A DNA stretch of 41,027 bases from a virus. Taxonomy: Duplodnaviria; Heunggongvirae; Uroviricota; Caudoviricetes. The notes beneath the pieces were generated by a model. That model worked only from the letters and a program-made list of their open reading frames with translations. It searched no databases and was not told the origin of the DNA. The stretch is taken from positions 128,001 through 169,027 of the IMG/VR virus record IMGVR_UViG_3300035208_002255. One strand, written 5' to 3'. The position numbers and the translations under genes are program-made. This document shows positions 21,217-39,567 of this stretch, piece by piece; within the stretch, counting starts at the first letter, position 1, and each line of letters starts with the position of its first letter.

Positions 21217-21244
21217 AGCCGCACGGGGCTTCTAATACTGTGAC
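21217..21244 (+). repeat. Dispersed pseudoknot motif, copy 1
   Basis: AGCCGCACGGGGCTTCTAATACTGTGAC. Confidence 0.9.
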
Positions 21245-21460
21245 AAGACCGAGCTTGGTAGGAAGGTTTACTTACATCCACACTTGGTAATTGAGGTTCA
21301 CCACTTCAACTTCAAGTCATGATAAACATCGTCCCATATACGAACTTCCTCTGCGAACTCTTCGTATATGGGATTTGACGTTTTTCTGTAATCTCTCAAA
21401 GTATCGAACATCTGAGAAATTCTCTTCTTCATGGATTCCTGAGACATCGATCCAAGGATC
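21245..21460 (+). ncRNA. Candidate structured small RNA
   Basis: Hairpins TTGAGGTT/AACTTCAA (21291-21315) and a perfect 13-bp stem TCCCATATACGAA/TTCGTATATGGGA (21332-21373); pyrimidine-rich loops. Confidence 0.55.
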
Positions 21461-21468
21461 GTTTTCGC

Positions 21469-21497
21469 TTGCTTTTTCACTTCTTCTCTGGCATGAT
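21469..21497 (+). promoter_or_regulatory. Sigma70-type promoter directly upstream of motif copy 2
   Basis: TTGCTT-17-CATGAT with TGG extension. Confidence 0.55.
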
Positions 21498-21503
21498 TCG
21501 ACA

Positions 21504-21531
21504 AGCCGCGTGGGGCTTCTAATTCTACGAC
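21504..21531 (+). repeat. Dispersed pseudoknot motif, copy 2
   Basis: AGCCGCGTGGGGCTTCTAATTCTACGAC. Confidence 0.9.
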
Positions 21532-21565
21532 TCTGGCATGATCGTCCATTAAATCCTCCTGACCT

Positions 21566-21579
21566 ACCTACATGTAGGT
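21566..21579. promoter_or_regulatory. 14-bp palindrome, putative operator
   Basis: ACCTACATGTAGGT; a near copy lies at 21938-21951. Confidence 0.5.
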
Positions 21580-21617
21580 GTCTGTATGAGATATATCAAG
21601 AAAGGCATAAAGTTGCA

Positions 21618-21935
21618 ATGAAAAACGACACTGAAACGACAGAAACTACAACTGAAAATACGTCCAGTAGTCTCAGTATTTTTGGACAGACGATCGGTGA
21701 GCCTGCGAATCAATGGTCACAGCGTGTAAGTTATGGGTTTGTGACCATTGAGTTGGCAACTGATGGTAACTCATCGTATATTGCAACGGCATTTTGGCGT
21801 GGCACAAACAACGTCATTTCCGTAGGTGATTGGAAGGGTTCGGCACAAGAAGCTCTTGATGTAATTCAAAGCAACATTGCTTCGATGATCAAAGAGCAAA
21901 ATGTTATGTTGTCAATATCTTTTTCACTGTCCTGA
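21618..21935 (+). CDS. Hypothetical protein, paralog A
   Basis: MKN...IFGQ.I..P....R..YG....EL......YIATA..RG shared with the next gene. Confidence 0.7.
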   Translation: MKNDTETTETTTENTSSSLSIFGQTIGEPANQWSQRVSYGFVTIELATDGNSSYIATAFWRGTNNVISVGDWKGSAQEALDVIQSNIASMIKEQNVMLSISFSLS

Positions 21936-21937
21936 TT

Positions 21938-21951
21938 AACTACATGTAGGT
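21938..21951. promoter_or_regulatory. Second copy of the palindromic putative operator
   Basis: AACTACATGTAGGT, preceded by CCTGA as in the first copy. Confidence 0.5.
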
Positions 21952-21979
21952 AGAGAAATATATGTAGGTTGGAGAAATA

Positions 21980-22276
21980 ATGAAAAACGTAAAGCAGTGC
22001 AAGATTTTTGGGCAGCCGATTGAGGTACCTGGGCCTCGGCAAAACTCCCGTATTGAGTACGGTTTGTTTTCATTTGAGCTAGACTCGAATGATGGAGAGG
22101 CTTATATCGCAACGGCTCGTCTGCGGGGCTCCAAGCATATCGTAGCTATCTCGGACTACAAGAAAGCATCTGAAGCGCTTAGCGAGGTCGAAGAGAAGGT
22201 GAAGCAGATTCTTCAAGAGCAGAAGGAAATGATCGGCTCACCTCTTGGACGTTTGTTGAGCAATGTCTCAAGCTAA
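21980..22276 (+). CDS. Hypothetical protein, paralog B
   Basis: GGAG SD; similarity to 21618..21935. Confidence 0.75.
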   Translation: MKNVKQCKIFGQPIEVPGPRQNSRIEYGLFSFELDSNDGEAYIATARLRGSKHIVAISDYKKASEALSEVEEKVKQILQEQKEMIGSPLGRLLSNVSS

Positions 22277-22293
22277 TCACTTACACAAAATAG

Positions 22294-22488
22294 TTGGGCC
22301 AGGTTTATACTGCGCATTATGTCCAAAAGCAATATGTTGATGGAGATTCTTTCAGTGGTATCAGTGGTTTGTTTTCAATTATTGGTGGCATCATAGCATG
22401 GCCATCTATAGTTGTTTTATATGCCATAATGATACCACTAAAGAAGTTTCTACAGCACAGAGTAAAGTCTAATTGCCAAAGAGGTTGA
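22294..22488 (+). CDS. Possible small membrane protein
   Basis: Hydrophobic stretch; poor start context. Confidence 0.35.
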   Translation: MGQVYTAHYVQKQYVDGDSFSGISGLFSIIGGIIAWPSIVVLYAIMIPLKKFLQHRVKSNCQRG

Positions 22489-22489
22489 A

Positions 22490-22786
22490 ATGAAGATCTA
22501 TCTTGATGATGAGCGAGCGCCACCCGAGGGATGGATTCTTGCGCGAAGCGTTCCAGTCCTTTGTCACCTACTCCAAACACATCAGGTCACTCACCTCTCT
22601 CTTGACCATGACCTTGGGGAAGATGAGATGACTGGGTATGACTTCATGCGGTGGTTGGAAGCTCAGGTGTTTAGCGGAACAATCAAAGAGATTCCTGAGA
22701 TTACTTTCCATACAGCAAACCCAACTGGCCGAAAGAATATGGAGTTGGCTCTGGCTAACATTCATAAGATGATGAGTCAATGTTAA
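22490..22786 (+). CDS. Cyclic-phosphate processing receiver domain protein
   Basis: KIYLDDER.PP.GW, LSLDHDLG, TGYD, HTANP.G. Confidence 0.85.
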   Translation: MKIYLDDERAPPEGWILARSVPVLCHLLQTHQVTHLSLDHDLGEDEMTGYDFMRWLEAQVFSGTIKEIPEITFHTANPTGRKNMELALANIHKMMSQC

Positions 22787-23673
22787 ACACAGGGTTCTCA
22801 GAAATTACCGAAGAACGTTTGCTTTACAAAGGTAAAGATCCTTGGTACGTTGAGGTTGCGATCACTGGTAGGTGCAATTTCCATTGCACCTATTGCAATA
22901 GGTTTTCTCAAAACCTTGACATGGAGAAGTTTAAAGCTTGGATTGATACCCAACAAAACCAGTTCAGGCATTTGCAAATTACCGGTGGTGAGCCCACTGT
23001 TCATCCTGAGTTTGAACAAATCGTTCAACTCTGCAGGTCGAGAACAAAGGTTCTTGGATTATCAACAAACGGATCGTGGTCATTAGAAAAGTATCTACAC
23101 CTTCCTGTTGATATGTTTTCAATCTCGTTTGATGATTACGATTTAGATATCCTTCGGTCAAGAGGTTACAACAATCCTGAGCACATTCTTAACTGTATAA
23201 AAGAACTTGCAAAGGTTCGATACGTTAATATAGGATTGGTAATTGACGAACACAATGTTTCAAGAGCTGAAGCTATTATAGATTTCCTACTTCAGCTAGG
23301 CGTATCTGATGTGAAGCTTTCAATATCAACACGAGCATTGGATACGATGCCTGTGTTTACAAAATTATATGAAGGTTATCCAATTCTATCCTACAGGGTA
23401 AACAACTTCAAAAATCAAAAACCAATGAGAGGGTACCCGGCTCCTCGATGTCACATTGCCAAGAATGACATTACTATTGTTGGTGACAAACACTATCCTT
23501 GTCTTGTTTATTTTAGGGAAAAAGGATCTGCAATCGGAAATCTTGATGATGAATCTATGCTTCAAGATAGAGAAGCTTGGAGTGAGTCTCACGATTGTTT
23601 AAAGGATCCAATCTGTAGTAAGTTTTGCATGGATTTCAAATGTGACTTCAATCACGCAAAAGGTGAACAATGA
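22780..23673 (+). CDS. Radical SAM protein (paralog of 30240..31235)
   Basis: CNFHCTYC, TGGEPT, STNGS; C-terminal HYPCLVY.RE.G..IG and DPIC..FC.D. Confidence 0.9.
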   Translation: MLNTGFSEITEERLLYKGKDPWYVEVAITGRCNFHCTYCNRFSQNLDMEKFKAWIDTQQNQFRHLQITGGEPTVHPEFEQIVQLCRSRTKVLGLSTNGSWSLEKYLHLPVDMFSISFDDYDLDILRSRGYNNPEHILNCIKELAKVRYVNIGLVIDEHNVSRAEAIIDFLLQLGVSDVKLSISTRALDTMPVFTKLYEGYPILSYRVNNFKNQKPMRGYPAPRCHIAKNDITIVGDKHYPCLVYFREKGSAIGNLDDESMLQDREAWSESHDCLKDPICSKFCMDFKCDFNHAKGEQ

Positions 23674-24050
23674 ACCCATCTATAGAAGAACATTCAATTG
23701 AAGCATGGAACTCAGAGCTTCGCTACAAGAAAGAACGCCCTTTAGATAGAGCGTTGCTCGTCATACATAATGGGAAGGCTCTTTATCTTGACCATATTGG
23801 ACCTGGGATTGAATACTACTTATCCGAATGCACTCATAAGGATGATGAATTCATCGAACCCAACGGGGTCTATATCTGGGAGGGCAAATTAATCTCGAAG
23901 GTGATCACGTACTTTGAAGGGGATCATGATTGTGAAGAAGAGCTTAATGGAACATTACGATTAGCAACACTTGACGAATGGCAAGCATATATTAATGACG
24001 AATATATCTGGGATAGAAGCGAATGGCTTTTACCAGATGAAGCAACCTAA
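23670..24050 (+). CDS. Hypothetical protein
   Basis: ATGA overlap. Confidence 0.7.
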   Translation: MNPSIEEHSIEAWNSELRYKKERPLDRALLVIHNGKALYLDHIGPGIEYYLSECTHKDDEFIEPNGVYIWEGKLISKVITYFEGDHDCEEELNGTLRLATLDEWQAYINDEYIWDRSEWLLPDEAT

Positions 24051-24078
24051 TTGGACCTGGGATTGAATACTACTTATC
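23796..24078 (+). repeat. 29-nt exact direct repeat (23796-23824 and 24050-24078)
   Basis: ATTGGACCTGGGATTGAATACTACTTATC twice. Confidence 0.9.
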
Positions 24079-24213
24079 TGATGACTTTTACTAGATTAAG
24101 AAACCCTATTCATGATTCAAATACTTTTCTAAACATATTAGTAACACTACTCCAAGAATTCTTGTTGATAAAATCCTTTTGTTTTGCTAATTGTTCTTCT
24201 AGAAAGATTTTGG

Positions 24214-24242
24214 TTGACAAAAGCTTCCCGTACTGGTACCAT
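24214..24242 (+). promoter_or_regulatory. Sigma70-type promoter
   Basis: TTGACA-17-TACCAT with TGG extension. Confidence 0.75.
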
Positions 24243-24275
24243 TGGGGGTTACTTGTGAACTTTGGAGTAAAAAGA

Positions 24276-25139
24276 ATGTCAGAGAAAATGGGACGCAAGA
24301 TGCCGGAATCCGCTTATACCAAGGCTAAGAGAATTGCAGAAGAAACCATGGATGCAATTCATGCATTAAAGTACAAGACTCCTAGTGGTAGGACCCTATC
24401 ACTGGATAAGCTTGTTACGCCAGCTGTTCGACGATCAAAGATGTACAAACCTGATTGGAATGAAGAGATCAGTGCCGAGAAGAATACATCTCCAAAGATC
24501 TCTGTTACCAGAGAATCAACTTTGGAGGCGGCGTATCGTTTGTCTGAGGACAATGCTTGTGTCCTAAACTTTGCCAGTGCGAAGCATCCGGGTGGGGGAT
24601 TTCTTCGAGGGGCTATTGCTCAGGAGGAATCCCTTGCTCGTTCTAGTGCATTGTATCATACATTGATTGAGCATCCTGAATACTATGAAGAGAATAAGCG
24701 TTCAGGTCGCAATGGTCCCGGTATCTATACGGACTATATAATCTATTCTCCTAACGTTCCTGTGATTAGAAATGATCGCGGGGATTGGTTGGAGGATCCT
24801 TACATCATGAGTGTCATTACTTCACCAGCGCCTAACCGTACCGCAATTCTTGAAGACTCAGATGATAGTACGATTACCGAGGATCAAGACAAGACTCTTG
24901 AAGAAGCTTTCAAGGCAAGAACGCTTAGAGTTCTAAATCTCATGGCCGCCAATGGTCACCGGAGTATTGTACTTGGCGCTTGGGGTTGTGGAATCTTTGG
25001 CAATGATCCTTGGAAGGTTGCGAAGATGTTTAAGGAAGCTCTTAAGGTTTGCCATTACTTCGATGAAGTGGTGTTCGCCATCTACGATTCACCAGACTCC
25101 GAAACATACAAAGCATTTGAAAAGGTATTTGCTTCTTAA
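24276..25139 (+). CDS. Bacterial-type poly(ADP-ribose) glycohydrolase (TIGR02452-like macrodomain)
   Basis: LNFASAKHPGGGFLRGAIAQEESLARSS (GGG-x6-QEE) and LGAWGCGIFGN; start after the promoter and GGAG SD. Confidence 0.9.
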   Translation: MSEKMGRKMPESAYTKAKRIAEETMDAIHALKYKTPSGRTLSLDKLVTPAVRRSKMYKPDWNEEISAEKNTSPKISVTRESTLEAAYRLSEDNACVLNFASAKHPGGGFLRGAIAQEESLARSSALYHTLIEHPEYYEENKRSGRNGPGIYTDYIIYSPNVPVIRNDRGDWLEDPYIMSVITSPAPNRTAILEDSDDSTITEDQDKTLEEAFKARTLRVLNLMAANGHRSIVLGAWGCGIFGNDPWKVAKMFKEALKVCHYFDEVVFAIYDSPDSETYKAFEKVFAS

Positions 25140-25147
25140 GGTGAATT

Positions 25148-25585
25148 ATGAAAGCTAGAAGATGTTTTGTAAGTAACTCTTCATCCAGTTCATTTGTTTT
25201 CATTGGCAACAATGGTGACTGTTCTCGTCGTGTGAAAGCTTTAGTTGAGGATGGTATTCTTATCTTGGGCACCCAAGGTGAGAATGAATTCGGCTGGGGA
25301 CCTGAAACAATTTCTGATGTCTTTAGTATGATTAACTTTGCTAAGTTGCAAGTTATCAATGGTAGCAATCCTCACTGGGGTGTTATGCTTGATGATGTTA
25401 TCAAAGAAGCAACTGGGTGTACAGAAATCATCTGGGACGAAAAACTTACCGATGAAGGATACATCGATCACCAATCATCCTCAAGCGATGGTTCTAATAC
25501 AGAAATCTTTGCGGATGAAGATACGTTGAGAAGGTTCTTGTTCTGTACAGATTCAGAAATCGTATTAGATAACGACAACCACTGA
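25148..25585 (+). CDS. Conserved phage protein with FVSNSSSSSF N-terminus
   Basis: MK.R..FVSNSSSSSF and IDHQS motifs. Confidence 0.75.
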   Translation: MKARRCFVSNSSSSSFVFIGNNGDCSRRVKALVEDGILILGTQGENEFGWGPETISDVFSMINFAKLQVINGSNPHWGVMLDDVIKEATGCTEIIWDEKLTDEGYIDHQSSSSDGSNTEIFADEDTLRRFLFCTDSEIVLDNDNH

Positions 25586-25591
25586 GGTATT

Positions 25592-25981
25592 ATGACGCTC
25601 GATATACCAGACACGCTTGAGTTTCATGGTGTTAAATTCCCACGTCATTTTGGTGGGATCTATAAATCATCAGAGCTTGGTGATGAGTTATATTTAGACA
25701 CCATTATACAAAGACTTCCTAATATGGATCATGTAAAAGTCCAAATCATTGTGAACCATTTAGTATCGATGGAGAGCAAATGGTGCAAAACATACGCGGA
25801 AGCGCTTAGCTTTCTTGAAGCTAGGACAAAACCATTTACAAAATTCAATCAAGAAAAGAAAATGATTGATGCAATAACCAATGCATTAGAAGCATTGATA
25901 GCTGGAAGTGAGCATATCAGCACTGCAATTGATATACTTGCTGACGCACTTAATAGTAAAGAAAAACAGCCTAGCCAATAA
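25592..25981 (+). CDS. Hypothetical protein
   Basis: GAGG SD. Confidence 0.65.
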   Translation: MTLDIPDTLEFHGVKFPRHFGGIYKSSELGDELYLDTIIQRLPNMDHVKVQIIVNHLVSMESKWCKTYAEALSFLEARTKPFTKFNQEKKMIDAITNALEALIAGSEHISTAIDILADALNSKEKQPSQ

Positions 25982-25992
25982 AGAAAAGTAAC

Positions 25993-26199
25993 ATGCCAGG
26001 ACCAGTTAGTGAATCTTATCAAGGGCCGTCTGATGACGGTCCATATGTTCCATCATGGTGTTATAAGAATGGACCGCATATGTGTCCATGTGGTCATCAT
26101 GAAGGATATCATAACGATAAAGGCGAATGCATTCTTCAACATAAATGTAAGTGTACAGGATTGCCAGAAGAGTGTTGTACAGCAGTAGGGGAAGGATAA
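25993..26199 (+). CDS. Small Cys/His-rich protein
   Basis: CPCGHHEGYH...C...CKC. Confidence 0.6.
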   Translation: MPGPVSESYQGPSDDGPYVPSWCYKNGPHMCPCGHHEGYHNDKGECILQHKCKCTGLPEECCTAVGEG

Positions 26200-26421
26200 A
26201 TGTTAACCAATATAGAGATTAGTCAAATACTAGACAGACTTGATAATACGAAGATTTCGTGTCGAAGACTTACACACTCTTCTTGTTCGATGCGTGTTAT
26301 TGGTGTATATCCAGAAGGCACAACGCAGGAAGAAGTTGAAAAGGAAGTTCAAGGAACATTTGGTGGTAGGTTTGTTTCATTCGACAAAGGCCTATTTGAA
26401 TACATTGCATATACGGATTGA
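26200..26421 (+). CDS. Hypothetical protein
   Basis: Abuts the previous stop; GTFGGRF...FEYIAYTD. Confidence 0.65.
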   Translation: MLTNIEISQILDRLDNTKISCRRLTHSSCSMRVIGVYPEGTTQEEVEKEVQGTFGGRFVSFDKGLFEYIAYTD

Positions 26422-26430
26422 GAGTTCACC

Positions 26431-26664
26431 ATGAGTTTATCTGATTGTTCAAAATGTTGGGATACTCCGTGTACTTGTGGATACGAATGGGAAAAGTATT
26501 CGTTAGAATACCTTCTTAAGTTTCGCACCATGATTAACGGTGTTATTGATAATAAACAACTTCACAACACTGAAAAGAAATGTGTTAGATGTGGTCGTTC
26601 TTTTAACGATCAATACAATATCCTTTGCTTAGATTGTAATGGAGATGACGATGCAACAGGATAA
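26431..26664 (+). CDS. Small Cys-rich protein
   Basis: SDCSKCWDTPCTCG and further CxxC pairs. Confidence 0.65.
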   Translation: MSLSDCSKCWDTPCTCGYEWEKYSLEYLLKFRTMINGVIDNKQLHNTEKKCVRCGRSFNDQYNILCLDCNGDDDATG

Positions 26665-26935
26665 AATGGAAATCGAATTCGCTTCAGATAATCTTGCAGC
26701 GCAATACAATAAAGAGATTCAAGAAATCTTTGCAAGCCTCAGACTCGCTGATGGTCACGAGCTCAGAGCGCGTGGCATTTGGGCTTCAGATGAATCTTAC
26801 ATCTCTGACATCGGACCATCTGAAGAAGCCTTGGAAAAGGTTAGCAAAGAGCTTGGTATCACTCTAACAAAGCATATGAGATTCGTTGACGCTGCGATGG
26901 AGTTGAGGAACAATCGCTCTAATGCAAAATCATAA
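26651..26935 (+). CDS. Hypothetical protein
   Basis: GGAG SD; start uncertain. Confidence 0.6.
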   Translation: MQQDKMEIEFASDNLAAQYNKEIQEIFASLRLADGHELRARGIWASDESYISDIGPSEEALEKVSKELGITLTKHMRFVDAAMELRNNRSNAKS

Positions 26936-27049
26936 ATCAAATATAGGGCACGATATCGAACGTCAACTTAAAGCCGTCAGCGGCGATAGTAAGGTTTTGT
27001 GCAGAGGCATGAAGAGAGTGTTTTAGTTCTTACCAACGTGAGGTTTAAG

Positions 27050-27307
27050 ATGGCTTGTTCAAGATGTAAATCAATTCGTATTGCAAATGCTGGTGGAAAA
27101 TGCTCAGATCTTTTCGGAGTTAGCATTCAGATTGATGAGGAAAACGTTCAGGAGCATGACGGATATGTTCCAGATGATTTGGGAATTGGCGGTGGAGATT
27201 ACATGGAGGTTTCGTATTGCCTTGATTGCGGACAGATACAAGGCACATGGCCTCTCCCGAGAACTGAACTAGAAGAAAAAGCACTTGCAAAGCTCGAAGA
27301 AGAGTGA
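27050..27307 (+). CDS. Small Zn-binding protein
   Basis: CSRC...GKCSD...GYVP..LGIGGGDY...CLDCGQIQG. Confidence 0.7.
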   Translation: MACSRCKSIRIANAGGKCSDLFGVSIQIDEENVQEHDGYVPDDLGIGGGDYMEVSYCLDCGQIQGTWPLPRTELEEKALAKLEEE

Positions 27308-27319
27308 TACAGTGCGGGT

Positions 27320-27733
27320 ATGTCCGACCACAAGTATACCCTTCATTTGACCGAGAGACAGGCCAGAGTTATCGTAGATGCTTTGGATCTGTTCTCCCGT
27401 ATTGGTATGGGGCAACTGAAAGAAGTTGCATATGTGTTGCGACAAAACCCATTACCAAGCTCTGACCCTGATCTTGAGGCGAGAACAACTCTGCTATCTG
27501 AGATTAGGGATAAACTAGATACCCTTTCCCGATATTGGATGAAGGGGCCCGGGTTTTATGGAATTACTTCCAAATCAATCTCAGATAGGTTTAGAATTGC
27601 TTTTGATATTCAACAAGTGATTCGTCACAGACTAGCCTGGGATCGTAATCCACAAGGTGATATTACCGTAGATTTCGATAATCCGACGAAAACATCCGAA
27701 GAAGATTTACCAAAGATTGAAACTGTCAAATGA
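27320..27733 (+). CDS. Hypothetical protein
   Basis: ORF track. Confidence 0.7.
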   Translation: MSDHKYTLHLTERQARVIVDALDLFSRIGMGQLKEVAYVLRQNPLPSSDPDLEARTTLLSEIRDKLDTLSRYWMKGPGFYGITSKSISDRFRIAFDIQQVIRHRLAWDRNPQGDITVDFDNPTKTSEEDLPKIETVK

Positions 27734-28050
27734 ATGCGCAATACAGTTTGGAGCAACAACTACAAGAACTAATTGGTATTGCAAACCGAGAAGGTTTGTA
27801 TGACGCCGCTGATTGGTTGAAGACAGCATTACATCAACCTAGCAGAGTGTTCGATGACAGTGATTGGAATGCATTCAATGATGTCTTTTTTGATCTAGGA
27901 TCAGATTCCAAATTAGATCGTAAAACTCTTCAACAGGCTTACGATAGCCTTCCAAATCATATCAAGTCTATTGCAATTCAGTGGGGTATGGGTGATACTG
28001 TGTTCCGCGATGAAGCTTGCAAATTTCTAAAAAAGATCAAAAATACCTAG
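27730..28050 (+). CDS. Hypothetical protein
   Basis: ATGA overlap. Confidence 0.65.
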   Translation: MNAQYSLEQQLQELIGIANREGLYDAADWLKTALHQPSRVFDDSDWNAFNDVFFDLGSDSKLDRKTLQQAYDSLPNHIKSIAIQWGMGDTVFRDEACKFLKKIKNT

Positions 28051-28056
28051 GTCAAT

Positions 28057-28676: not shown

Positions 28677-28887
28677 GAATGATGTTGAAGGTTCCAAGTT
28701 TACATTCCGATATAATGGAACTGAGTTTACTTACTTAGGTGCCCCTATCAATGCTGACTTTGAATTGAGCTATGAAACTCTAGCTCCATACGTAACCCAA
28801 GTCCTAGACCTAGCCGCCCCACTAGAAGGTAACGGTCTTATGATTAGGTTTGTGGAAATCAAAAACAACACAGTGAAAGTTTGGTAG
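28651..28887 (+). CDS. Hypothetical protein
   Basis: ORF track. Confidence 0.6.
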   Translation: MTIPLRWIKNDVEGSKFTFRYNGTEFTYLGAPINADFELSYETLAPYVTQVLDLAAPLEGNGLMIRFVEIKNNTVKVW

Positions 28888-28888
28888 T

Positions 28889-32831: not shown

Positions 32832-32833
32832 TT

Positions 32834-33091
32834 ATGAATGTCAAAGAACTCAAAGAAGCAATTGTAAATCTTCCTGATGATATGGAGGTGATTCTCCAAA
32901 AAGATTCTGAAGGAAACGGCTACTCTCCATTGGCGGGTGCAGATCCTGACACAGTATATGTACCAAGGAATACTTGGTCCGGTGAAACATACAGTACGAA
33001 CTATGGAGCTTCAGAACATTGTCTGGAAGAAGATGAATGGGAAAAGCTCAAAGCTGGTCCACACGCTTTGGTTCTATTTCCAGTGAACTAA
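32834..33091 (+). CDS. Hypothetical phage protein
   Basis: LPDDMEVILQKDSEGNGYSPL. Confidence 0.7.
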   Translation: MNVKELKEAIVNLPDDMEVILQKDSEGNGYSPLAGADPDTVYVPRNTWSGETYSTNYGASEHCLEEDEWEKLKAGPHALVLFPVN

Positions 33092-33113
33092 TTCAGAACG
33101 GTTCGAAAAACTC

Positions 33114-33142
33114 TTGACTTTCGAGAGCCTAGTGAGTAAAGT
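33114..33142 (+). promoter_or_regulatory. Sigma70-type promoter (a second, extended -10 TGATATTAT lies at 33175-33183)
   Basis: TTGACT-17-TAAAGT. Confidence 0.65.
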
Positions 33143-33190
33143 TCTCCCTCGCTGGAACGAAAGTTCTCGGTCCTTGATATTATCGATGAA

Positions 33191-33218
33191 AGCCGCATGG
33201 GGCTTCTAATACTATGAC
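33191..33218 (+). repeat. Dispersed pseudoknot motif, copy 3
   Basis: AGCCGCATGGGGCTTCTAATACTATGAC. Confidence 0.9.
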
Positions 33219-33260
33219 ACAATCACGGAGGAGGCGGGGCGTGTGCCCTCCTGAAATGGA

Positions 33261-33710
33261 ATGATTGAACTCAAAGATGGAACGTATTACAAGGCCGTTT
33301 GGAATTTCGAGTTCCGCGCAGGGACTGGGATTATTCCAACTGAACATGACGGAAATGTTCTAGGCGCGTTGTTCACAACGGACCCAGAAAGAAAACTCTG
33401 GACAATGACGTATCGTTTCAGGTACTATGTGGACGACATCAACGACAATACTTCTCAAGATGTCAAGAATTGGTACAGGGCTGAAAATACTGGACCTGAA
33501 GATAAAATCTGGGAAGATGCCAAAAAAGCTATGACCATGTTGGCTACAGTTCAGCTATCAACTCTCAACTGTGTTATGATTGAGAGTGATAAGTCAGAAG
33601 ATCAGTTGAAAAAGATTCAGGAACTCCCTGGTATGAATGTTGAACAAAAACTCAATTCAGAACAAGAAGAAGCCAAGATCAATGTTCGACCAAGTTCCGC
33701 ATTGAACTAA
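33261..33710 (+). CDS. Hypothetical protein flanked by motif copies 3 and 4
   Basis: ORF track. Confidence 0.7.
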   Translation: MIELKDGTYYKAVWNFEFRAGTGIIPTEHDGNVLGALFTTDPERKLWTMTYRFRYYVDDINDNTSQDVKNWYRAENTGPEDKIWEDAKKAMTMLATVQLSTLNCVMIESDKSEDQLKKIQELPGMNVEQKLNSEQEEAKINVRPSSALN

Positions 33711-33737
33711 ACCGCATGGGGCTTCTAATACTATGAC
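33710..33737 (+). repeat. Dispersed pseudoknot motif, copy 4
   Basis: AACCGCATGGGGCTTCTAATACTATGAC. Confidence 0.88.
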
Positions 33738-33744
33738 AACTAAT

Positions 33745-33868
33745 CAGAGCTGCCGATACCTCCCTCCTTTTTTTAGGTGGCTCTGTGCGGGAGTTTCCAT
33801 GACTCGCCTCACGCACTCCCTGTGTGCGCAGTTGCTGGACTGCATCACATACCCTCCCCTCTTGTGTG
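33745..33868 (+). ncRNA. Candidate sRNA: hairpins with CCUCC-rich loops
   Basis: CAGAGCTGCC/GGTGGCTCTG with loop ..ACCTCCCTCC..; CACATA/TGTGTG with loop CCCTCCCCTCT. Confidence 0.55.
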
Positions 33869-33886
33869 TAAACAAAACCAGCGCTT

Positions 33887-33958
33887 GGGACATTAACTCA
33901 ATGGTAGAGTAGGACCCTTTTAAGGTCAAGGCTACAGGTTCGAGTCCTGTATGTCCCA
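33887..33958 (+). tRNA. tRNA-Lys(TTT)
   Basis: Acceptor GGGACAT/ATGTCCC, D arm ACTC/GAGT, anticodon loop CTTTTAA, T loop TTCGAGT; no encoded CCA. Confidence 0.93.
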
Positions 33959-34009
33959 CTAACCGATTGGTTGATAGGACTTAACAGGATGAAACCTGTT
34001 AAATTCACT

Positions 34010-34167
34010 GACAATCTCTAACCTGTGAAGCAACTGGGTTTGCGAAAGAACTCATGAATCTTTCAAGATAAAAAGGTTGCGATAGCGTGAAGTGATGCTA
34101 GCTACTAAACACTTCTCAACTACTCTGAGTTGACAATAAGCGGCAGAGTCGAAAATTAGAGATTGTC
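34010..34167 (+). ncRNA. Candidate 158-nt multibranch RNA
   Basis: Perfect 12-bp closing stem GACAATCTCTAA/TTAGAGATTGTC enclosing several hairpins. Confidence 0.6.
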
Positions 34168-34177
34168 TTAATTTAAA

Positions 34178-34204
34178 AGCCGCATGGGCTTCAAATACTA
34201 TGAC
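34178..34204 (+). repeat. Dispersed pseudoknot motif, copy 5
   Basis: AGCCGCATGGGCTTCAAATACTATGAC. Confidence 0.88.
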
Positions 34205-34231
34205 CGGAGATACGGTGCCACGAAAATGATT

Positions 34232-34299
34232 TTCACAAAGGATATAGGTTCGATTCCCATCAGTAACGTCATCTAATATGGCTTAAGATACTTTGTGAG
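34232..34299 (+). ncRNA. Circularly permuted tRNA-like domain (T arm before D arm; YrlA/Y-RNA-like topology)
   Basis: TTCACAAAG/CTTTGTGAG stem enclosing ATAGG-TTCGATT-CCCAT, a short linker, then ATCT-AATATGGCTTA-AGAT-A. Confidence 0.65.
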
Positions 34300-34302
34300 T
34301 TT

Positions 34303-34376
34303 GCCCTAATAGCTCAGTTGGATAGAGCAGGAAATTTCTAATTTTCAGGTCGGGAGTTCGAATCTCTCTTGGGGTA
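34303..34376 (+). tRNA. tRNA-Arg(TCT)
   Basis: Acceptor GCCCTAA/TTGGGGT, D arm GCTC/GAGC, anticodon loop TTTCTAA, T loop TTCGAAT; no CCA. Confidence 0.93.
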
Positions 34377-34383
34377 CTAAATT

Positions 34384-34704
34384 ATGTATTGTGATTTTTG
34401 CCAATGTCATATGTGTCAAACAGGTCAAACACACTATGTTGCCATTGACGGCTCCATAGATGAACCTGATGGAGTAATGCGAGTATTGTTTCACACACAA
34501 ACAATTGATGGTCATTGGATTTGTGAAACGTGTTATACATATGATGTGTGCGCAAGAAATAAATCTGATCCATGTGAAGGTTTATGTGGAGAATTCAAAT
34601 GCGATCACAGACCAAAACTAATTAATAACGAGTGGACATTCTGGACTTGGCGAACTGGCTCGCAAGAGAATACAATTGAAGAACCTCACTATGACTTAAC
34701 TTAA
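34384..34704 (+). CDS. Cys-rich hypothetical protein
   Basis: CDFCQCHMC, WICETC, CDHRP. Confidence 0.65.
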   Translation: MYCDFCQCHMCQTGQTHYVAIDGSIDEPDGVMRVLFHTQTIDGHWICETCYTYDVCARNKSDPCEGLCGEFKCDHRPKLINNEWTFWTWRTGSQENTIEEPHYDLT

Positions 34705-34723
34705 TCTCTGGTAACATATATAT

Positions 34724-34874
34724 GCACTGGTAACTCAATTGGTCAGAGTATGATTAGAATTGATTCGCGGTAAGTTCTAATCGGTCAGATGAAAACTTTT
34801 GGTTGCTCTTAGGTTGTAGTCTGATTTATCACCCGGCAGGGAGAAGGTTGTTGGTTCGAATCCAGCTCAGTGCA
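34724..34874 (+). ncRNA. tRNA-like RNA with the anticodon/variable region replaced by a ~99-nt three-hairpin insert
   Basis: Acceptor GCACTGG/TCAGTGC-A, D arm ACTC-AATTGGTCA-GAGT, T arm GTTGG-TTCGAAT-CCAGC. Confidence 0.75.
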
Positions 34875-35124
34875 CGCGAGCCATTTAACTAATGGCTAGT
34901 CGGAGCCGTAAACAAATAAGATATCTGGTAACAGATCTCTTATGACCGATGAATAGAAGTAAAATGGTTTTTTACAAAAACGGATTGACAAGTAATCACC
35001 TCTAGGCTAGACCAATGTGGTGAAAGTTGTGGTGGTTGAGCACCGCGTATGCATTGATACATACAAAGATAAGCAACAAAATAATAAGCTCTTTACTTAT
35101 ATCAAGTTGCTCATCACTCAACTT

Positions 35125-35141
35125 GCTTCTAATACTATGAC
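35125..35141 (+). repeat. 3' half copy of the pseudoknot motif
   Basis: GCTTCTAATACTATGAC, 25 nt before copy 6. Confidence 0.8.
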
Positions 35142-35166
35142 GTTCGACCCCAACCCAGTGCAACAT

Positions 35167-35193
35167 AGCCGCATGGGCTTCTAATACTATAAC
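35167..35193 (+). repeat. Dispersed pseudoknot motif, copy 6
   Basis: AGCCGCATGGGCTTCTAATACTATAAC. Confidence 0.85.
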
Positions 35194-35212
35194 CTAAAAA
35201 CACGAATAGAAT

Positions 35213-35515
35213 ATGAGTAAAGATCATAAGGTCAAGGATGCGTCAGCTGACATGACCGAAAGGCGATTACTTCCAAATCATTGGGTTGGTGTAATGCCAA
35301 AACGTCAATTACCGCAGCTATCTCATTCAGTTGCTCAAGCGCGTCTTTGTGGCAGTTGTCATGGATGTTCTAATCGAGCCGTAGACGATAAGTCTATTAT
35401 AACCACTGCGGGAGTAGATTACAGCGATATCGTGTATTGTTCTATGCATGGGTGGCAATTTGAGAGTATAGAACAAGAGCGGATGTACACCTGCTTCGAC
35501 TTTCATGAAGCTTAA
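35213..35515 (+). CDS. Hypothetical Cys/His-containing protein
   Basis: ORF track. Confidence 0.6.
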   Translation: MSKDHKVKDASADMTERRLLPNHWVGVMPKRQLPQLSHSVAQARLCGSCHGCSNRAVDDKSIITTAGVDYSDIVYCSMHGWQFESIEQERMYTCFDFHEA

Positions 35516-35529
35516 TGATGCCTAAGCCC

Positions 35530-35557
35530 TTGACTTCTTTTGAAAGTCTGGTACAGT
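35530..35557 (+). promoter_or_regulatory. Sigma70-type promoter directly upstream of motif copy 7
   Basis: TTGACT-16-TACAGT with TGG extension. Confidence 0.7.
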
Positions 35558-35562
35558 AACTC

Positions 35563-35589
35563 AGCCGCGTGGGCTTCTAATTCTACGAC
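35563..35589 (+). repeat. Dispersed pseudoknot motif, copy 7
   Basis: AGCCGCGTGGGCTTCTAATTCTACGAC. Confidence 0.9.
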
Positions 35590-35606
35590 CGCCCTGACCC
35601 TTGCAT

Positions 35607-35678
35607 GCTTCCTAAGCATTGTTGGCGATGCACTTGATTTGTAATCATGAGAAATCGGTTCGATTCCGGTGGGAAGCT
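35607..35678 (+). tRNA. tRNA-Thr(TGT)
   Basis: Acceptor GCTTCCT/GGGAAGC, D arm GCAT/ATGC, anticodon loop TTTGTAA, T loop TTCGATT; no CCA. Confidence 0.9.
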
Positions 35679-35697
35679 CAACTTGTAGACTAAAAAC

Positions 35698-35752
35698 GCT
35701 CGTGTGACAGAATTGGCAGACGCGCTGGAAGATTCAAGTCCTGCCGCGAGCA
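35698..35752 (+). pseudogene. Anticodon-less tRNA remnant (Leu-type D loop)
   Basis: Acceptor GCTCGTG/CGCGAGC-A, D region GAATTGGCAGAC, degenerate T arm with TTCAAGT; only 55 nt. Confidence 0.65.
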
Positions 35753-35816
35753 CGAAGAGAAGAGGAAATGAAGACGGCCAGCGGGGAATGTTATTGATTC
35801 AATATCAGATTTCTTC

Positions 35817-35844
35817 TTGATTTCTGTCATAGTCCTGGTACAAT
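35817..35844 (+). promoter_or_regulatory. Sigma70-type promoter
   Basis: TTGATT-16-TACAAT with TGG extension. Confidence 0.65.
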
Positions 35845-35862
35845 CGTCTTCGACAGGTTAAT

Positions 35863-36132
35863 ATGACATTTACAATTATTGTTTGGATATCATCCCTATT
35901 TCTCGGATGCGCACTTTTTCTAGGATACATTTTGGGAATCTGGAAAATACTGAAGCCAAAAACAAATGCGGTATTAGGAACAGTATTTTGTGGATTTCTA
36001 ATAACAATGGTACTACTACCATTGTCATGTATGGAATCAAAGTCCGAAGACGCAAAAATGCGTGACGAATATGGTTGCCATCGAAAAAATCCGAACTATC
36101 ATGCATGCAGAGAAAAAGGGATTTACTGGTAG
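35863..36132 (+). CDS. Small membrane protein (possible -1 frameshift extension to 36257)
   Basis: Two hydrophobic helices; AGGT SD. Confidence 0.65.
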   Translation: MTFTIIVWISSLFLGCALFLGYILGIWKILKPKTNAVLGTVFCGFLITMVLLPLSCMESKSEDAKMRDEYGCHRKNPNYHACREKGIYW

Positions 36133-36260
36133 CAACAACGGCAGGTTCTCCGAATGGTTACTCGTGCAATAACAAACATCATAAGATGCGAGTTGAGCCG
36201 GTAACAAAAGCTGGTGAAGAGATTGGTGCTTTAGTCTTTTGTGAATGTGTAAAGTAACTA

Positions 36261-36609
36261 TCCTCTTAGGAACTACAGGCGCTTATCTGTAGTAGCTGAA
36301 GTCTGTATGGGATTATGCGCAATGCTATACAGATGCAGAGTTGCAAGCACTCTGATGAGGACTCATTCCTTCGGGAGTGATGGTGGAGGAGGAGCGAGTT
36401 AAATCGTTCGTCCCTAGGTATCTACAGTACCAGGACTTATCAATGGACATTAAATGCTTTGTGTTCGATAAGTTCAATCTTCTCATATAAAGAGTAATTT
36501 GACAAAAGCCTACTCGGCGCGAGATGATATGTACAGGGATTGAGAGTTCCTGTAAGTAACCAAGGTGGAGGAAGAGATAACATCAAATCCGTAGAAGCTT
36601 TGGTTACTT
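36261..36609 (+). ncRNA. Candidate hairpin-array RNA upstream of the tmRNA
   Basis: At least 8 consecutive stems including a cUUCGg hairpin (36363-36380) and a 12-bp stem (36554-36609); no credible ORF. Confidence 0.55.
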
Positions 36610-36619
36610 CTCAAACAAC

Positions 36620-36978
36620 GGGGCAGACTGGTTTCGACGTGGCTAATGAGGATAGAGTGAACATGCAAGCGGGAGTATGTTACCGCTTTGAACAATGACA
36701 TGCCGTATTAACTGCCAACGACAACGCAGACCTCGCCATCGCTGCCTAATAAGCAGTAGGCGACATCCCGAGACAAGGAGTCTTAGTAATCAAGGGGTGC
36801 CAACCCACAAGGACTGGTTTTTTGGAATGATGTTACCAAAGAATGAGATTAATATCTAGGGTTGCTAAGTTTGCCGAATTACTTAGCGGGGCTTCTATCG
36901 CCTTAAGATAGATAAGCATGTGAGCGAGCTTTGTAGTACGTAGTCGCGGACCGGGGGTTCGACTCCCCCGATGCTCCA
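36620..36978 (+). ncRNA. ssrA: tmRNA (one-piece), tag peptide ANDNADLAIAA
   Basis: 5' GGGGCAGACTGGTTTCGAC; 3' T arm CGGGGGTTCGACTCCCCCG and TGCTCCA with a G3-U pair; tag frame 36714-36749 after TTAACT. Confidence 0.95.
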
Positions 36979-36996
36979 CTAAATAGAGTGTTGAAT

Positions 36997-37278
36997 ATGA
37001 ATACGTACAAATACGGATCAACGTTTAAAACCCGCACTTCAAGTATTGCCAAAATCTTTGGAGCCATCTTTGGTTTCATTACCTTGGCCCTTGGTACTGT
37101 TGCTGTTATTGTTGGTCTAGCCATTCTTATGGCGTTTCCAACGATGTGGTTATGGAACTATGTTATTCCTCATATCTCCAGAGGAAATGTTCCTTGCATT
37201 AGTTTGTGGCAAGCGCTTGCGCTGAATGCGTTGTGTGGTATTCTTTTCAAATCTAATTGCAAGAAATCTGAGAGTTGA
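36997..37278 (+). CDS. Small membrane protein
   Basis: PTMWLWNYVIP...ISLWQALAL..L..ILFK. Confidence 0.7.
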   Translation: MNTYKYGSTFKTRTSSIAKIFGAIFGFITLALGTVAVIVGLAILMAFPTMWLWNYVIPHISRGNVPCISLWQALALNALCGILFKSNCKKSES

Positions 37279-37285
37279 TAACAAA

Positions 37286-37438
37286 ATGAACTCCAAGTAC
37301 GACATAGATTATCTCAGAGCTTTTACAGATGTTTTGGCAGCTGGTAATCCCAATACCAAATCAATGCATCAAATTGTAGAGCGTTATTACAGTGCCTTAG
37401 ATCAAGCTCCCAAGAAGAAAGAATACAACAATGTTTGA
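37286..37438 (+). CDS. Small hypothetical protein
   Basis: ATG 37286; overlaps the start of the ATPase gene. Confidence 0.5.
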   Translation: MNSKYDIDYLRAFTDVLAAGNPNTKSMHQIVERYYSALDQAPKKKEYNNV

Positions 37439-38897
37439 ACGTGACTTTCGTGAGGAAAATAACAAACTCCGTGATAAGCTTTCAGAGGCTTCCTCCTACA
37501 TTAAAGAGCTTGAAGGTTTCATTGAGGAGGTAAAGGACGGGCCAAGCTCTTACGCTTACGTTATTCAGACTCATGGTAATAGAGTCACTGTCAGTACCAA
37601 CAATGGTATTGTTGAAGTTCCCAATACTCTTAAGGCTCAGATGCCTAAGATTGGTGATGGTGTTATGTTTGGTGGTCTAGGAATCATCACTGGGCCAGCG
37701 GCACAAGAGATTGTTATTGGAGATCTTTTTGTTGTAACAGCTCACGGTAATGGTTGGGCAGAAATTAGTGTTGATAGCTCTCCTCGCCGAGTTGTCTGCT
37801 CTCTTCAGGTTGAAGATGGTGATCGTGTTCTTATGGATACGAATAATACCATTGCCCTAAAGAACTACGGCCAAGATACAACGAAGTTCTCTTTTGATGG
37901 AGATACCGGAGTTCAGTGGGATGACATCGGAGGTTTGGAGAATGCCAAGCTAACTTTACAGGAAGCTATTGAACTTCCTAGTAAGCATCCCGATCTATTC
38001 AAGAAGTACAATAAGCGCCTTCCTAAGGGAGCAATGTTGTACGGTCCCAGTGGGACTGGAAAGACTTTGCTTGCAAAGGCTGCCGCCACTTCCCTTGCGC
38101 AGACTCATGGTAAATCTGCAAAGAGCACTGGCTTTATTTATGTTAAGGGACCAGAGCTTCTAAATATGTGGGTTGGTAACACTGAAGCAGAGATTCGTGG
38201 ATTGTTTGCTCGTGGTCGAGACCATTTCAAGAAGAATGGATATCCTGCAATTCTATTCATCGACGAAGCTGATGCTCTCCTCGGGGCTCGTGGCGGATCT
38301 TCTCATACATCTCAAGGAACTCTAGCCAACACTATTGTTCCTCAGTTCCTAAGCGAGATGGATGGTCTTGAAGATTCTGGAGTCTTTGTTCTGCTTGCAA
38401 CGAACCGTCCAGATTTTTTGGATGCTGCCGTAACTCGTGATGGTCGTATTGATCGAAAGGTTGCAGTACTACGTCCGAATGAGGATGCCGCAAAATCTGT
38501 TCTTCGAATTCATATGAAGAACCGTCCCATCTTTGCTGGAGCTGAGTTGGAAACCCTTCTCGATCATTCAATTGCGTATCTGTATGGAGAGAAGTTCTCG
38601 TTGTATGAAGTAACTTACAACAGGGCTAATCCTCAGAAAAGAACTATGCTTCTCAAGGATCTTGTCAATGGTGCAATGATTGCTGGTATTGCAGAGCGTG
38701 CGGCTAGTATTGCAATGCAGCGAGATATTGAGAATGCAATGAAGGGCGTAAAGGAAGCTGATGGTATTTCTATTAGTAATATTTACGAAGCCATCGATGC
38801 GGTGTATGAGGAGAACCTTCACATTAATCACGATCTAGCCATTCAAGAATTCGGTGAATCCCTGGATGGTGACATCACTAACATTCAGCGAGTATAA
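37431..38897 (+). CDS. ARC/Mpa-like (proteasome-type) AAA+ ATPase
   Basis: N-terminal coiled coil and OB-like region; WDDIGGL, YGPSGTGKT, VKGPELLN..VG.TE, LFIDEAD, TIVPQFLSEMDG, ATNRPD..D.A..R.GRID. Confidence 0.88.
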   Translation: MFERDFREENNKLRDKLSEASSYIKELEGFIEEVKDGPSSYAYVIQTHGNRVTVSTNNGIVEVPNTLKAQMPKIGDGVMFGGLGIITGPAAQEIVIGDLFVVTAHGNGWAEISVDSSPRRVVCSLQVEDGDRVLMDTNNTIALKNYGQDTTKFSFDGDTGVQWDDIGGLENAKLTLQEAIELPSKHPDLFKKYNKRLPKGAMLYGPSGTGKTLLAKAAATSLAQTHGKSAKSTGFIYVKGPELLNMWVGNTEAEIRGLFARGRDHFKKNGYPAILFIDEADALLGARGGSSHTSQGTLANTIVPQFLSEMDGLEDSGVFVLLATNRPDFLDAAVTRDGRIDRKVAVLRPNEDAAKSVLRIHMKNRPIFAGAELETLLDHSIAYLYGEKFSLYEVTYNRANPQKRTMLLKDLVNGAMIAGIAERAASIAMQRDIENAMKGVKEADGISISNIYEAIDAVYEENLHINHDLAIQEFGESLDGDITNIQRV

Positions 38898-38898
38898 T

Positions 38899-39096
38899 AT
38901 GTGGGCTCAAAAAAAGCGACATGGTAATTATGGTGGGAACAATAATGATGCAACCCAACAACAAGCCGTTCCCAAACTTCGTGGTACCGGAGATATTGAA
39001 GCTCTTCTAAAAGAAAGCCAATCCAATGATAAGTTGGAAAAGCAAGAGAAAGAACGCGGATACGAAAATGGGAGTAGTTGCGGATGTGGATGGTAA
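38899..39096 (+). CDS. 65-aa hydrophilic protein ending SSCGCGW (Pup-like size and composition)
   Basis: ATG 1 nt after the ATPase stop; low-complexity polar sequence. Confidence 0.65.
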   Translation: MWAQKKRHGNYGGNNNDATQQQAVPKLRGTGDIEALLKESQSNDKLEKQEKERGYENGSSCGCGW

Positions 39097-39419
39097 TCAA
39101 AACCATTTTGGTTTTAGGAATCGCAGCTGGATTCATTTCACTGACGGTTACTAAATCCACAATCTTCGAACCCTTCAGGGACTTCTTCTTCCATCACTCT
39201 GAAAAGAGTGCCGTGATGAAGTTTCTGTATGACTTAGTGACGTGCCCATATTGTTTCAGTCATTGGGTATCATTGGTAATGGTCTGTATTTGGCAACCAA
39301 GGATTGTTAATTGTGGTTGTATTTGGGTTGACCTTGGAGTAAGTTGGTTCGTGATGGTTGGTATTGCATCTTACGCTTGGGGAATCTTCTTTAAGATCAC
39401 TTCAGAAAATTCGGAATGA
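39090..39419 (+). CDS. DUF1360-family membrane protein
   Basis: IFEPFR...LVTCPYCFSHWVS. Confidence 0.75.
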   Translation: MVIKTILVLGIAAGFISLTVTKSTIFEPFRDFFFHHSEKSAVMKFLYDLVTCPYCFSHWVSLVMVCIWQPRIVNCGCIWVDLGVSWFVMVGIASYAWGIFFKITSENSE

Positions 39420-39539
39420 AATCTTTACATGGAAAGAGCTTGCGCTTGGACTTATTTTTGGGTTACTGTTTTGAATGATCTCTCGCAAACCGCATGATAA
39501 TAGATTGATTTTATTATCATTGTGATGGGAGATAATAAC

Positions 39540-39567
39540 AGCCGCATGGGGCTTTTAATACTATGAC
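39540..39567 (+). repeat. Dispersed pseudoknot motif, copy 8
   Basis: AGCCGCATGGGGCTTTTAATACTATGAC. Confidence 0.9.

Follow-up and report, generated by a model that had tools for sequence, protein, structure and literature searches.

Dispersed Copies of a Pseudoknot Motif in a Phage Genome Fragment

The stretch of DNA analysed here, which we refer to as the window, is 41,027 nt long and covers positions 128,001–169,027 of the virus record IMGVR_UViG_3300035208_002255; the whole record, named G000, measures 169,027 nt (41% GC). Coordinates are those of the window unless they are preceded by G000 or by the name of another contig. The record encodes a Ku-like protein, a ligase, a helicase, a tmRNA and 40 called tRNA genes, and both the Ku-like protein and an ATP-dependent ligase are encoded within the window. 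Scattered between the genes is a motif of 27–28 nt predicted to fold into a pseudoknot, and it is this motif, related below to the repeats of type V-M (Cas12m) CRISPR systems, that is described here.

The window contains eight full copies and one 3′ half copy, all on the plus strand and all at the positions given for them in an earlier note on this DNA. Copy 1 (21217..21244) is a solitary repeat of the Cas12m type in its CAC/GTG variant, while copy 2 (21504..21531) has the CGT/ACG variant and is two mismatches away from the repeat of a Cas12m array in a metagenome-assembled genome (MAG) of Sorangium (contig L021). Copy 3 (33191..33218) is occupied identically in the sister contig L077. Copy 4 (33710..33737) lies directly 3′ of a stop codon: as noted earlier, it overlaps the final base of the TAA that terminates the open reading frame (ORF) 33261–33710. 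It is flanked by a 5–7-nt duplication. Copies 5 (34178..34204), 6 (35167..35193) and 7 (35563..35589) are 27 nt long. Copy 6 begins 25 nt after the half copy (35125..35141), the two together making up a one-spacer mini-array, and copy 7 is found 17 nt upstream of a tRNA-Thr gene (35607). The last full copy in the window is copy 8 (39540..39567).

Five more full copies are located on the minus strand at 48–59 kb of the record, starting at G000 59240, 54244, 54110, 51434 and 48168, which brings the total to 13 full copies or, with the half copy, 14 units. The strand of the unit is the majority coding strand within 4 kb for all 14 of them; relative to the local genes, the motif does not occur in both orientations. 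A strict pattern matched 13 times in the record and never in 20 mononucleotide shuffles. In a search with a covariance model trained on the record copies and related copies, the 13 copies scored 39.7–53.7 bits (by construction) and the next match 13.5 bits, so that the record yielded no further convincing copy.

The Motif as the Handle of a Type V-M CRISPR Repeat

Pattern scans of related contigs detected tandem arrays in which the same repeat alternates with variable spacers. In contig L002, an array of 35 repeats directly follows the gene for a 578-aa protein with a PF07282 domain (Cas12f1-like TNB domain). The best sequence matches of this protein in the PDB are UnCas12m4a (E 2e-22) and Cas12m (E 3e-20), and a Foldseek search with its structural model (predicted template modelling score of 0.30) gave Cas12m2 or Cas12m for the top four matches, at 16–18% identity. 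By sequence and model comparison, the array-linked effector is thus assigned to Cas12m rather than to TnpB or Cas12f. TnpB was rejected as its identity at an NCBIfam TnpB score of 46, the cut-off being 100. In all, a Cas12m-like gene followed by this repeat was found at 12 distinct loci (L002, L014, L021, L027, L035, L052, L056, L057, L080, L096, L099 and L100). The L002 array itself (L002 9199–11730) has irregular spacers and a mixture of covarying repeat variants; a scan of 21 neighbouring proteins found neither cas1 nor cas2.

Each of the 13 copies in the record is 1–4 nt away from a cas12m-linked repeat, the nearest being that of the Sorangium-MAG array in L021, and the dispersed copies lack the first ~8 nt of the array repeat. 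The scaffold of the Cas12m2 CRISPR RNA (crRNA) is described as a stem plus a pseudoknot, with a G:A pair, a terminal C that is read by the protein and a disordered stretch of 7 nt at its start (PMC10442227), and the Go and Ap crRNAs published for Cas12m show the same arrangement of two stems with GAC at the end (PMC11013384). The motif has a stem and a pseudoknot ending in a G.A pair and a C, as in the published layout. Because the linkage to arrays and cas12m, the distance of 1–4 nt and the scaffold layout agree, the motif is almost certainly the 3′ 28 nt, that is, the structured pseudoknot handle, of a type V-M (Cas12m) CRISPR repeat. A guide-RNA scaffold was among the four readings offered in the earlier note, and it proves to be the right one, the motif being the scaffold part of the crRNA repeat; the statement that the motif belongs to no known family was mistaken, for the Cas12m repeat is known, though absent from Rfam.

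Repeats of the ToxI kind are tandem pseudoknots of 34–57 nt linked to a ToxN-type RNase. A ToxI-like decoy, proposed at the same time, is unsupported, and the motif does not qualify as a ToxI-like type III toxin–antitoxin repeat: it has no Rfam match, and the gene that the same repeat adjoins in related loci is that of a Cas12m-like protein.

The covarying pseudoknot reported earlier persists in a larger alignment. When 17 sequences from related loci are added to the 13 record copies (n = 30), 99.3% of 267 cells are paired and 25 cells are changed on both sides, the covariation counts being inflated by kinship between the sequences. None of 500 shuffles reached the observed value for pairing or for two-sided changes, and slid controls pair at 32–47%. 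Single pairing defects occur in copy 4 (one pair of the first stem) and copy 6 (one pair of the second stem). When the eight window copies were simply folded together with the sequence that follows them, the z-scores ranged from −0.7 to 0.13, which is uninformative since the program does not model pseudoknots. The Rfam search returned no family for the motif and, for the window, only tRNA and tmRNA matches at E values up to 1.

The Effector Clade, the Phage and Its Probable Host

One search with the effector retrieved 131 homologs, and the RuvC D-E-D triad is present in all seven aligned proteins of the clade. Full-length matches are rare in hosts (one in the 401 genomes of the order to which the Sorangium MAG belongs), and several of the clade's loci are either viral records or adjoin genes of a phage-like kind (for a helicase, a methyltransferase and an integrase, for example). 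Because of this rarity in host chromosomes and these viral or phage-like loci, the clade looks mostly phage-borne. In G005, a cas12m gene, arrays and dispersed lone copies occur together. Searches by tblastn, PF07282 and our own profile did not find the gene in G002 or G004. In the low-GC sister contig L071, a 51-aa remnant of the N-terminus of cas12m (hidden Markov model E 4e-8) comes after two G000-type repeats, and because of this remnant, the sister clade appears to have carried an effector of its own. Used as a query, the remnant retrieved no longer homologs, which is weak evidence.

G000 is probably one piece of a jumbo-phage genome. Many of the proteins encoded in its left 72 kb are shared with G001, a related fragment of 208 kb whose tail and replication genes lie in a part that is absent from G000; relatives of the Ku-like protein sit on contigs of 446–463 kb. 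The record has a terminal inverted repeat of 127 nt. Among the proteins scanned (62 window ORFs against PHROGs; 112 Pfam and 51 PHROG scans from 162 ORFs outside the window), there was no capsid, terminase or tail match apart from a weak terminase match to a protein that is FtsK-like. Of the Ku homologs that carry a bacterial name, the nearest are from Polyangiaceae, a closer one on the 463-kb contig bearing an archaeal bin label, and the effector clade is present in Polyangiaceae and Sorangium MAGs. Because of these two affinities, the host is probably a myxobacterium. A comparison of window positions 21100–41027 with the 401 genomes of the Sorangium MAG's order gave no spacer link to a host, only tRNA and tmRNA being among the matches listed. 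INPHARED contained neither a close relative nor a match to the Cas12m clade, and no further IMG/VR sisters were found by way of the AAA ATPase, Ku or a clade-specific element. The AAA ATPase (37431–38897) has its best phage matches in proteins annotated as proteasome-associated ATPase (38.5% identity).

Presence and Absence of the Repeat between Sister Phages

The copies were compared site by site with metagenome contigs of sister phages. Ten record copies have non-identical sister data. The repeat is absent from the sister in five cases (copy 2 in L092, copies 4 and 5 in L077, G000 54244 in L085 and G000 48168 in L079) and present in the other five (copies 1 and 3, G000 59240, 54110 and 51434), and four further copies occur only in sisters. 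At the copy 1 site, L092 has the repeat with the same guide (the predicted guide being the sequence that adjoins the 3′ end of the repeat) and a 1-nt indel, and L078 has the repeat with a different guide followed by a terminator-like hairpin. Downstream sequences also differ at the orthologous repeats of G000 54110 (in L085) and 59240 (in L004). Where copy 5 stands in G000, L077 has a short ORF instead, without a clean junction; the repeat-free counterpart of copy 4 in L077 is preceded by TTG. Conversely, the window has repeat-free alleles on its plus strand at 28841..28857, where L063 carries the repeat (guide match 15/17, preceded by TTA), and at 33863..33879, where L077 carries an extra one (16/17, preceded by TCT).

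The copy 2 locus is reciprocal. The predicted guide of copy 2 (21532..21548, plus strand) matches the repeat-free allele of L092, a promoter region, at 16/17 positions after ATC, and the guide of a copy that is present only in L092, at a different place, matches G000 at 16/17 positions after TTT. The latter site (21606..21622, minus strand) covers the start of ORF 21618–21935, which L092 does not have at this place. The L092 unit is on the transcribed strand despite its target being on the opposite strand. In G000, an 11-nt duplicate of the start of the copy 2 guide (21487..21497, plus strand), preceded by TTC, overlaps the likely −10 box before copy 2. Downstream of copy 2, ORFs 21618–21935 and 21980–22276 are small paralogues (35% identity), each after a CTACATGTAG palindrome; they have no credible family match and are possible counter-defence genes.

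Junctions, PAM-like Triplets and Guide Targets

Twelve comparisons between occupied and repeat-free sequence were assembled from the presence/absence cases and three GC-rich elements (L087, L083 and L029). In nine of them, the stretch that is homologous to the repeat-free sequence has its first base at guide position 1–3, right after the terminal GAC. The triplets preceding the nine sites, counted without copy 5, G000 54244 and the L079 copy at 3048, are ATC, TTG, TTA, TTT, TCT, AAC, TTC, CTC and CTG. Four are TTN (binomial p = 0.007 at the genomic TT frequency of 0.095) and seven have a T at −2 (NTN; p = 0.004), statistics that rest on nine events, with YTN and NTN defined after these had been inspected. 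The guide match beside a triplet resembling a protospacer-adjacent motif (PAM) is seen for the sister-only copies of L092 (TTT) and L063 (TTA) and is weaker for the record's own copies (ATC; TTG with an indel in the seed; AAC).

The arrays provide a second set of targets. Among 210 spacers and guides, two array spacers match other contigs (25/25 and 24/25), both after TTG, and the matched contigs, L075 and L089, themselves carry the repeat; a third array spacer matches its own genome at 22/25 after GTG. These matches indicate a putative TTG PAM for the arrays. The Cas12m PAMs measured so far are T- and C-rich (PMC11013384).

Self-targets stand out for three of the 14 guides in the record: the upstream duplicate at copy 2, a tandem duplicate after G000 51434 and the tRNA-like match of the half copy. 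In the last case, the 25 nt that follow the half copy resemble the end (3′) of the tRNA-like gene, at 34854 and after TTG; the match is 16/20 in the self-target search and 17/22 over the longer stretch, and it was left out of the PAM count as weak. A duplication of ~5–30 nt in the arrangement [X][Y-repeat][X′] was observed in five cases (copy 2, copy 4, L077, L083 and L029). In a systematic comparison of guides with upstream sequence, copy 2 and L029 were the only solitary copies with a clear duplication, the gapped duplications being seen in alignments; duplication is not a general rule.

A Proposed Role in Silencing Related Phages

We propose, giving it an even chance of being right, that the lone copies are crRNA-like units loaded on a Cas12m supplied in trans, and that they silence sister phages without the repeat at the site concerned. 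Each copy would be transcribed together with the adjoining DNA as a predicted guide RNA, processed, and loaded onto a Cas12m from outside the contig, encoded perhaps in the unassembled part of the phage, by a co-infecting phage or by a prophage in the probably myxobacterial host. In line with the proposal, G004, a complete phage of 68 kb, has three copies of the motif and no cas12m match. The PAM of the clade may be TTN or YTN. By analogy with the element ends of TnpB, the carrier would be immune because the repeat sits between PAM and protospacer. New copies could be planted by recombination with an array that holds a spacer against the site, an event compatible with the [X][Y-repeat][X′] arrangement. 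Since the same RNAs would also occupy Cas12m, they are expected to act as decoys as well. The tested Cas12m orthologs, including those with the D-E-D triad, bind and block DNA without cutting it (PMC11013384), and because of this the silencing of co-infecting kin, by binding of their DNA, is likelier than homing. A further-reaching version, in which the 28-nt repeat is a minimal RNA-guided mobile element of jumbo phages that immunises its carrier, targets repeat-free sisters and spreads by means of a borrowed Cas12m, is advanced tentatively, as we consider it rather doubtful; if true, sister phages would be engaged in a site-by-site arms race without a cas gene of their own.

Several observations weigh against silencing of kin. 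By tblastn, PF07282 and our own profile, cas12m was not found in G000 or G001, and the record does not combine a cas12m gene with a regular array; G000 being a fragment, the absence holds for the 169-kb record and not for the whole phage. To this is added the rarity of the clade in hosts. Three of the 12 comparisons (copy 5, G000 54244 and the L079 copy at 3048) lack a clean junction, two of the nine triplets (AAC and TCT) are not PAM-like, and the sister allele for copy 2 is preceded by ATC rather than TTN. Compared with the repeat-free allele, the guides of copy 4 and G000 48168 each have a 1-nt indel within the seed, which amounts to two of the record's own three clean empty alleles. A target in the record, G001 or the sister contigs (for which data are limited) was found for only a minority of the 14 guides, several downstream sequences resemble ordinary leaders or conserved non-coding RNAs, and repeat-free alleles could equally arise by deletion.

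The lone repeats could instead act purely as an RNA anti-CRISPR (Racr), titrating the Cas12m of the host, a prophage or a rival phage, the downstream sequence being irrelevant. We see this as a possible explanation that is on the unlikely side. It agrees with 13 intact, covarying and co-oriented copies, many of them in tRNA-rich regions, with the lack of a detected cas12m in the record, G001 and the complete phage G004, and with the retention of the repeat where the downstream sequence has changed (L078 versus copy 1, L085 versus 54110 and L004 versus 59240); the class is established for types I-C, I-E, I-F and V-A (PMC10651486). However, titration leaves the 3′-end junctions in nine of 12 comparisons, the PAM-like triplets and the reciprocal 16/17 matches unexplained, and the remnant in L071 suggests that the clade carried its own effector.

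The copies would be scars of escape if a site targeted by Cas12m had recombined with the spacer-bearing array, splitting PAM from protospacer, and the RNA had no later role. The duplications of variable length, the 5′-truncated copies (copy 4 and the half copy) and the exact 3′ junctions are what such events might leave behind, and the Ku-like protein and ATP-dependent ligase encoded in the window are in line with them. Scars are nevertheless improbable in view of the co-orientation of all 14 units with the local genes, shared by the L092 unit in spite of its opposite-strand target, the almost complete preservation of pairing, and the retention of some copies at promoter starts across sisters. 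A selfish homing mini-element, for which Cas12m would cut the repeat-free allele of a co-infecting sister phage and the 28-nt repeat would be copied in during repair, in the manner of a TnpB-like drive, would account for the position of the repeat between PAM and guide, for the presence/absence polymorphism and for the D-E-D triad of the effector clade, but none of the eight Cas12m orthologs tested by Bigelyte et al., four of them D-E-D, cuts double-stranded DNA (PMC11013384), and seeds with indels or missing PAMs at some sites speak against it as well; homing thus appears very improbable.

The earlier note had placed the motif at the 5′ ends of transcripts, and this stands for about three of the eight window copies (1, 7 and 2) and fails as a general rule. 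A −10 box at 5–9 nt, claimed for copies 1, 2, 3 and 7, is likely before copies 1, 2 and 7; for copy 3, the nearest scanned promoter ends ~49 nt upstream. The sigma-70-like promoter TTGACA-16-TATTAT (21180..21207, plus strand) ends 9 nt before copy 1, and the cassette of promoter and repeat is retained in sister contigs L078 and L092. The promoter-like site TTGACT-16-TACAGT with an extended TG (35530..35557, plus strand) ends 5 nt before copy 7. Copy 2 is preceded by an extended −10 (TGGCATGAT) with a TTGCTT −35, seen in the sequence and below the threshold of the promoter scan. Copy 4 lies after a stop codon and copy 6 begins 25 nt past the half copy. Run X1, whose contigs are probably DNA, includes a contig of 228 nt that spans copy 4 with one difference; the others are mostly tRNA-sized pieces, and the run is uninformative on expression. 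A function of the repeat as 5′ cap, processing tag or antiterminator of the tRNAs and other RNAs downstream of it, as was also suggested, is most improbable: the three placements after a likely −10 box, the several copies that precede tRNAs and the processing of pre-crRNA within the repeat by Cas12m (PMC11013384) would suit it, but L077, L079, L085 and L092 keep the RNA, tRNA or gene in question where they lack the repeat (in L077, these are the conserved RNA and the tRNA that follow copy 4 in G000), and the majority of the 40 called tRNA genes are not preceded by a repeat.

Relation to Known Systems

In TnpB/omegaRNA systems of IS200/IS605 elements, the scaffold ends at the edge of the element, the flanking DNA is the guide and the empty site is the target. 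The repeats described here would share these three features but travel with no transposase, no left element end and no effector, and Cas12m, as tested, does not cut. Cas12m and TnpB scaffolds are alike (PMC11013384, PMC10442227).

Published type V-M effectors comprise MmCas12m2 (PMC10442227), GoCas12m and its orthologs (PMC11013384) and the phage protein MvCas12m (bioRxiv 10.64898/2026.09.14.751636). The system studied here resembles them in the layout of the scaffold (stem and pseudoknot, G.A pair, GAC end), the predicted T/C-rich PAM and, in related loci, the regular arrays beside genes for Cas12m-like proteins of 520–600 aa. It differs in that G000 has 13 lone dispersed copies of 27–28 nt and no detected cas12m, in that the "spacer" is the phage's own flank, and in that the effector clade is distant from the solved Cas12m proteins (16–18% identity).

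Racrs and solitary repeat units are likewise lone, intergenic CRISPR repeats in phages, some with their own promoter (PMC10651486), and the copies in G000 are lone intergenic repeats in a mobile element that match a known CRISPR repeat. In contrast to Racrs, they number 13 per record, are polymorphic between sisters and are found at PAM-adjacent sites. The main text of PMC10651486 does not mention V-M, V-U or Cas12m, and in nine of its supplement files there was no occurrence of V-M, of V-U1, of two strings from the motif or of two contig identifiers. Viral mini-arrays and Cracr/crlRNA guides are virus-encoded and use an effector in trans, the mini-array spacers targeting related viruses (PMC11656645; bioRxiv 10.1101/2024.10.29.618823; bioRxiv 10.1101/2023.03.03.530964). 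The present units would be similar in providing virus-encoded crRNA-like guides for an effector in trans, whereas the mini-array spacers are taken from elsewhere in the target and the guides here are the carrier's own adjacent sequence from the homologous site. Cracrs target cas promoters with at least 9 PAM-proximal matches; the longest PAM-proximal run of our 14 guides against the cas12m promoters was 7 nt (560-nt windows at the starts of nine cas12m genes, the true cognate locus not being among the nine).

Lone repeats as Racrs, mini-arrays directed at relatives, Cracrs and phage Cas12m have thus all been published already (including PMC12607003), and the motif is a known repeat in an unusual deployment. 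In the literature covered, which leaves out most subscription journals, we found no report of dispersed V-M repeats at PAM-adjacent sites (the supplements of preprints may list V-M units). The copies in G000 are also candidates for RNAs that inhibit or hijack type V-M, a kind of RNA for which the literature searched gave no report. If the proposal is right, new CRISPR guides could be obtained without spacer acquisition, the repeat moving instead of the spacer, and the logic of TnpB element ends would operate in a Cas12 system. The phage-borne Cas12m clade comprises more than 100 proteins, with a PAM predicted from natural targets, and key steps of the proposed role are amenable to reporters in E. 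coli or in cell-free systems.

Neighbouring RNAs

Structured non-coding sequences are found next to several copies. About 230 nt after copy 1 (21245–21470) are non-coding and end at a terminator; they are well conserved in L092, where a long hairpin shows compensatory changes. Without an Rfam match, this stretch is a candidate phage non-coding RNA. Following copy 4, a hairpin-rich non-coding stretch (33738–33885) before a tRNA-Lys gene is conserved in L077, where the repeat is missing, and is spanned by one X1 contig. A palindromic hairpin starting with GTTACCAA precedes three minus-strand copies (on L008; G000 54278, 54144 and 51467) and accompanies the repeat in the sisters L079 and L085; its 10-nt start recurs elsewhere in the record, including inside the tmRNA. 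Downstream of the G000 59240 copy is a conserved structured element (L008 ~18980–19090, minus strand; L004 ~9700–9850, minus strand) in common with G001, for which there was no Rfam match at the gathering threshold.

A repeated element of ~25 nt occurs among tRNA genes (L008 ~10850–11410 and 13350, minus strand; L071 20–90) and in places seems to stand in for the 5′ half of tRNA-like sequences. A tRNA-like gene with a long insertion (34724–34874) scores 37 bits in Rfam and was missed by ARAGORN. On the minus strand at G000 31840–31934 (L007:11840–11934), ARAGORN called a tRNA with the anticodon TTA, resembling a stop suppressor, with a weak Rfam score of 29 bits. The tmRNA (36620–36981) is of the phage type, and its tag, as read from the sequence, is ANDNADLAIAA.

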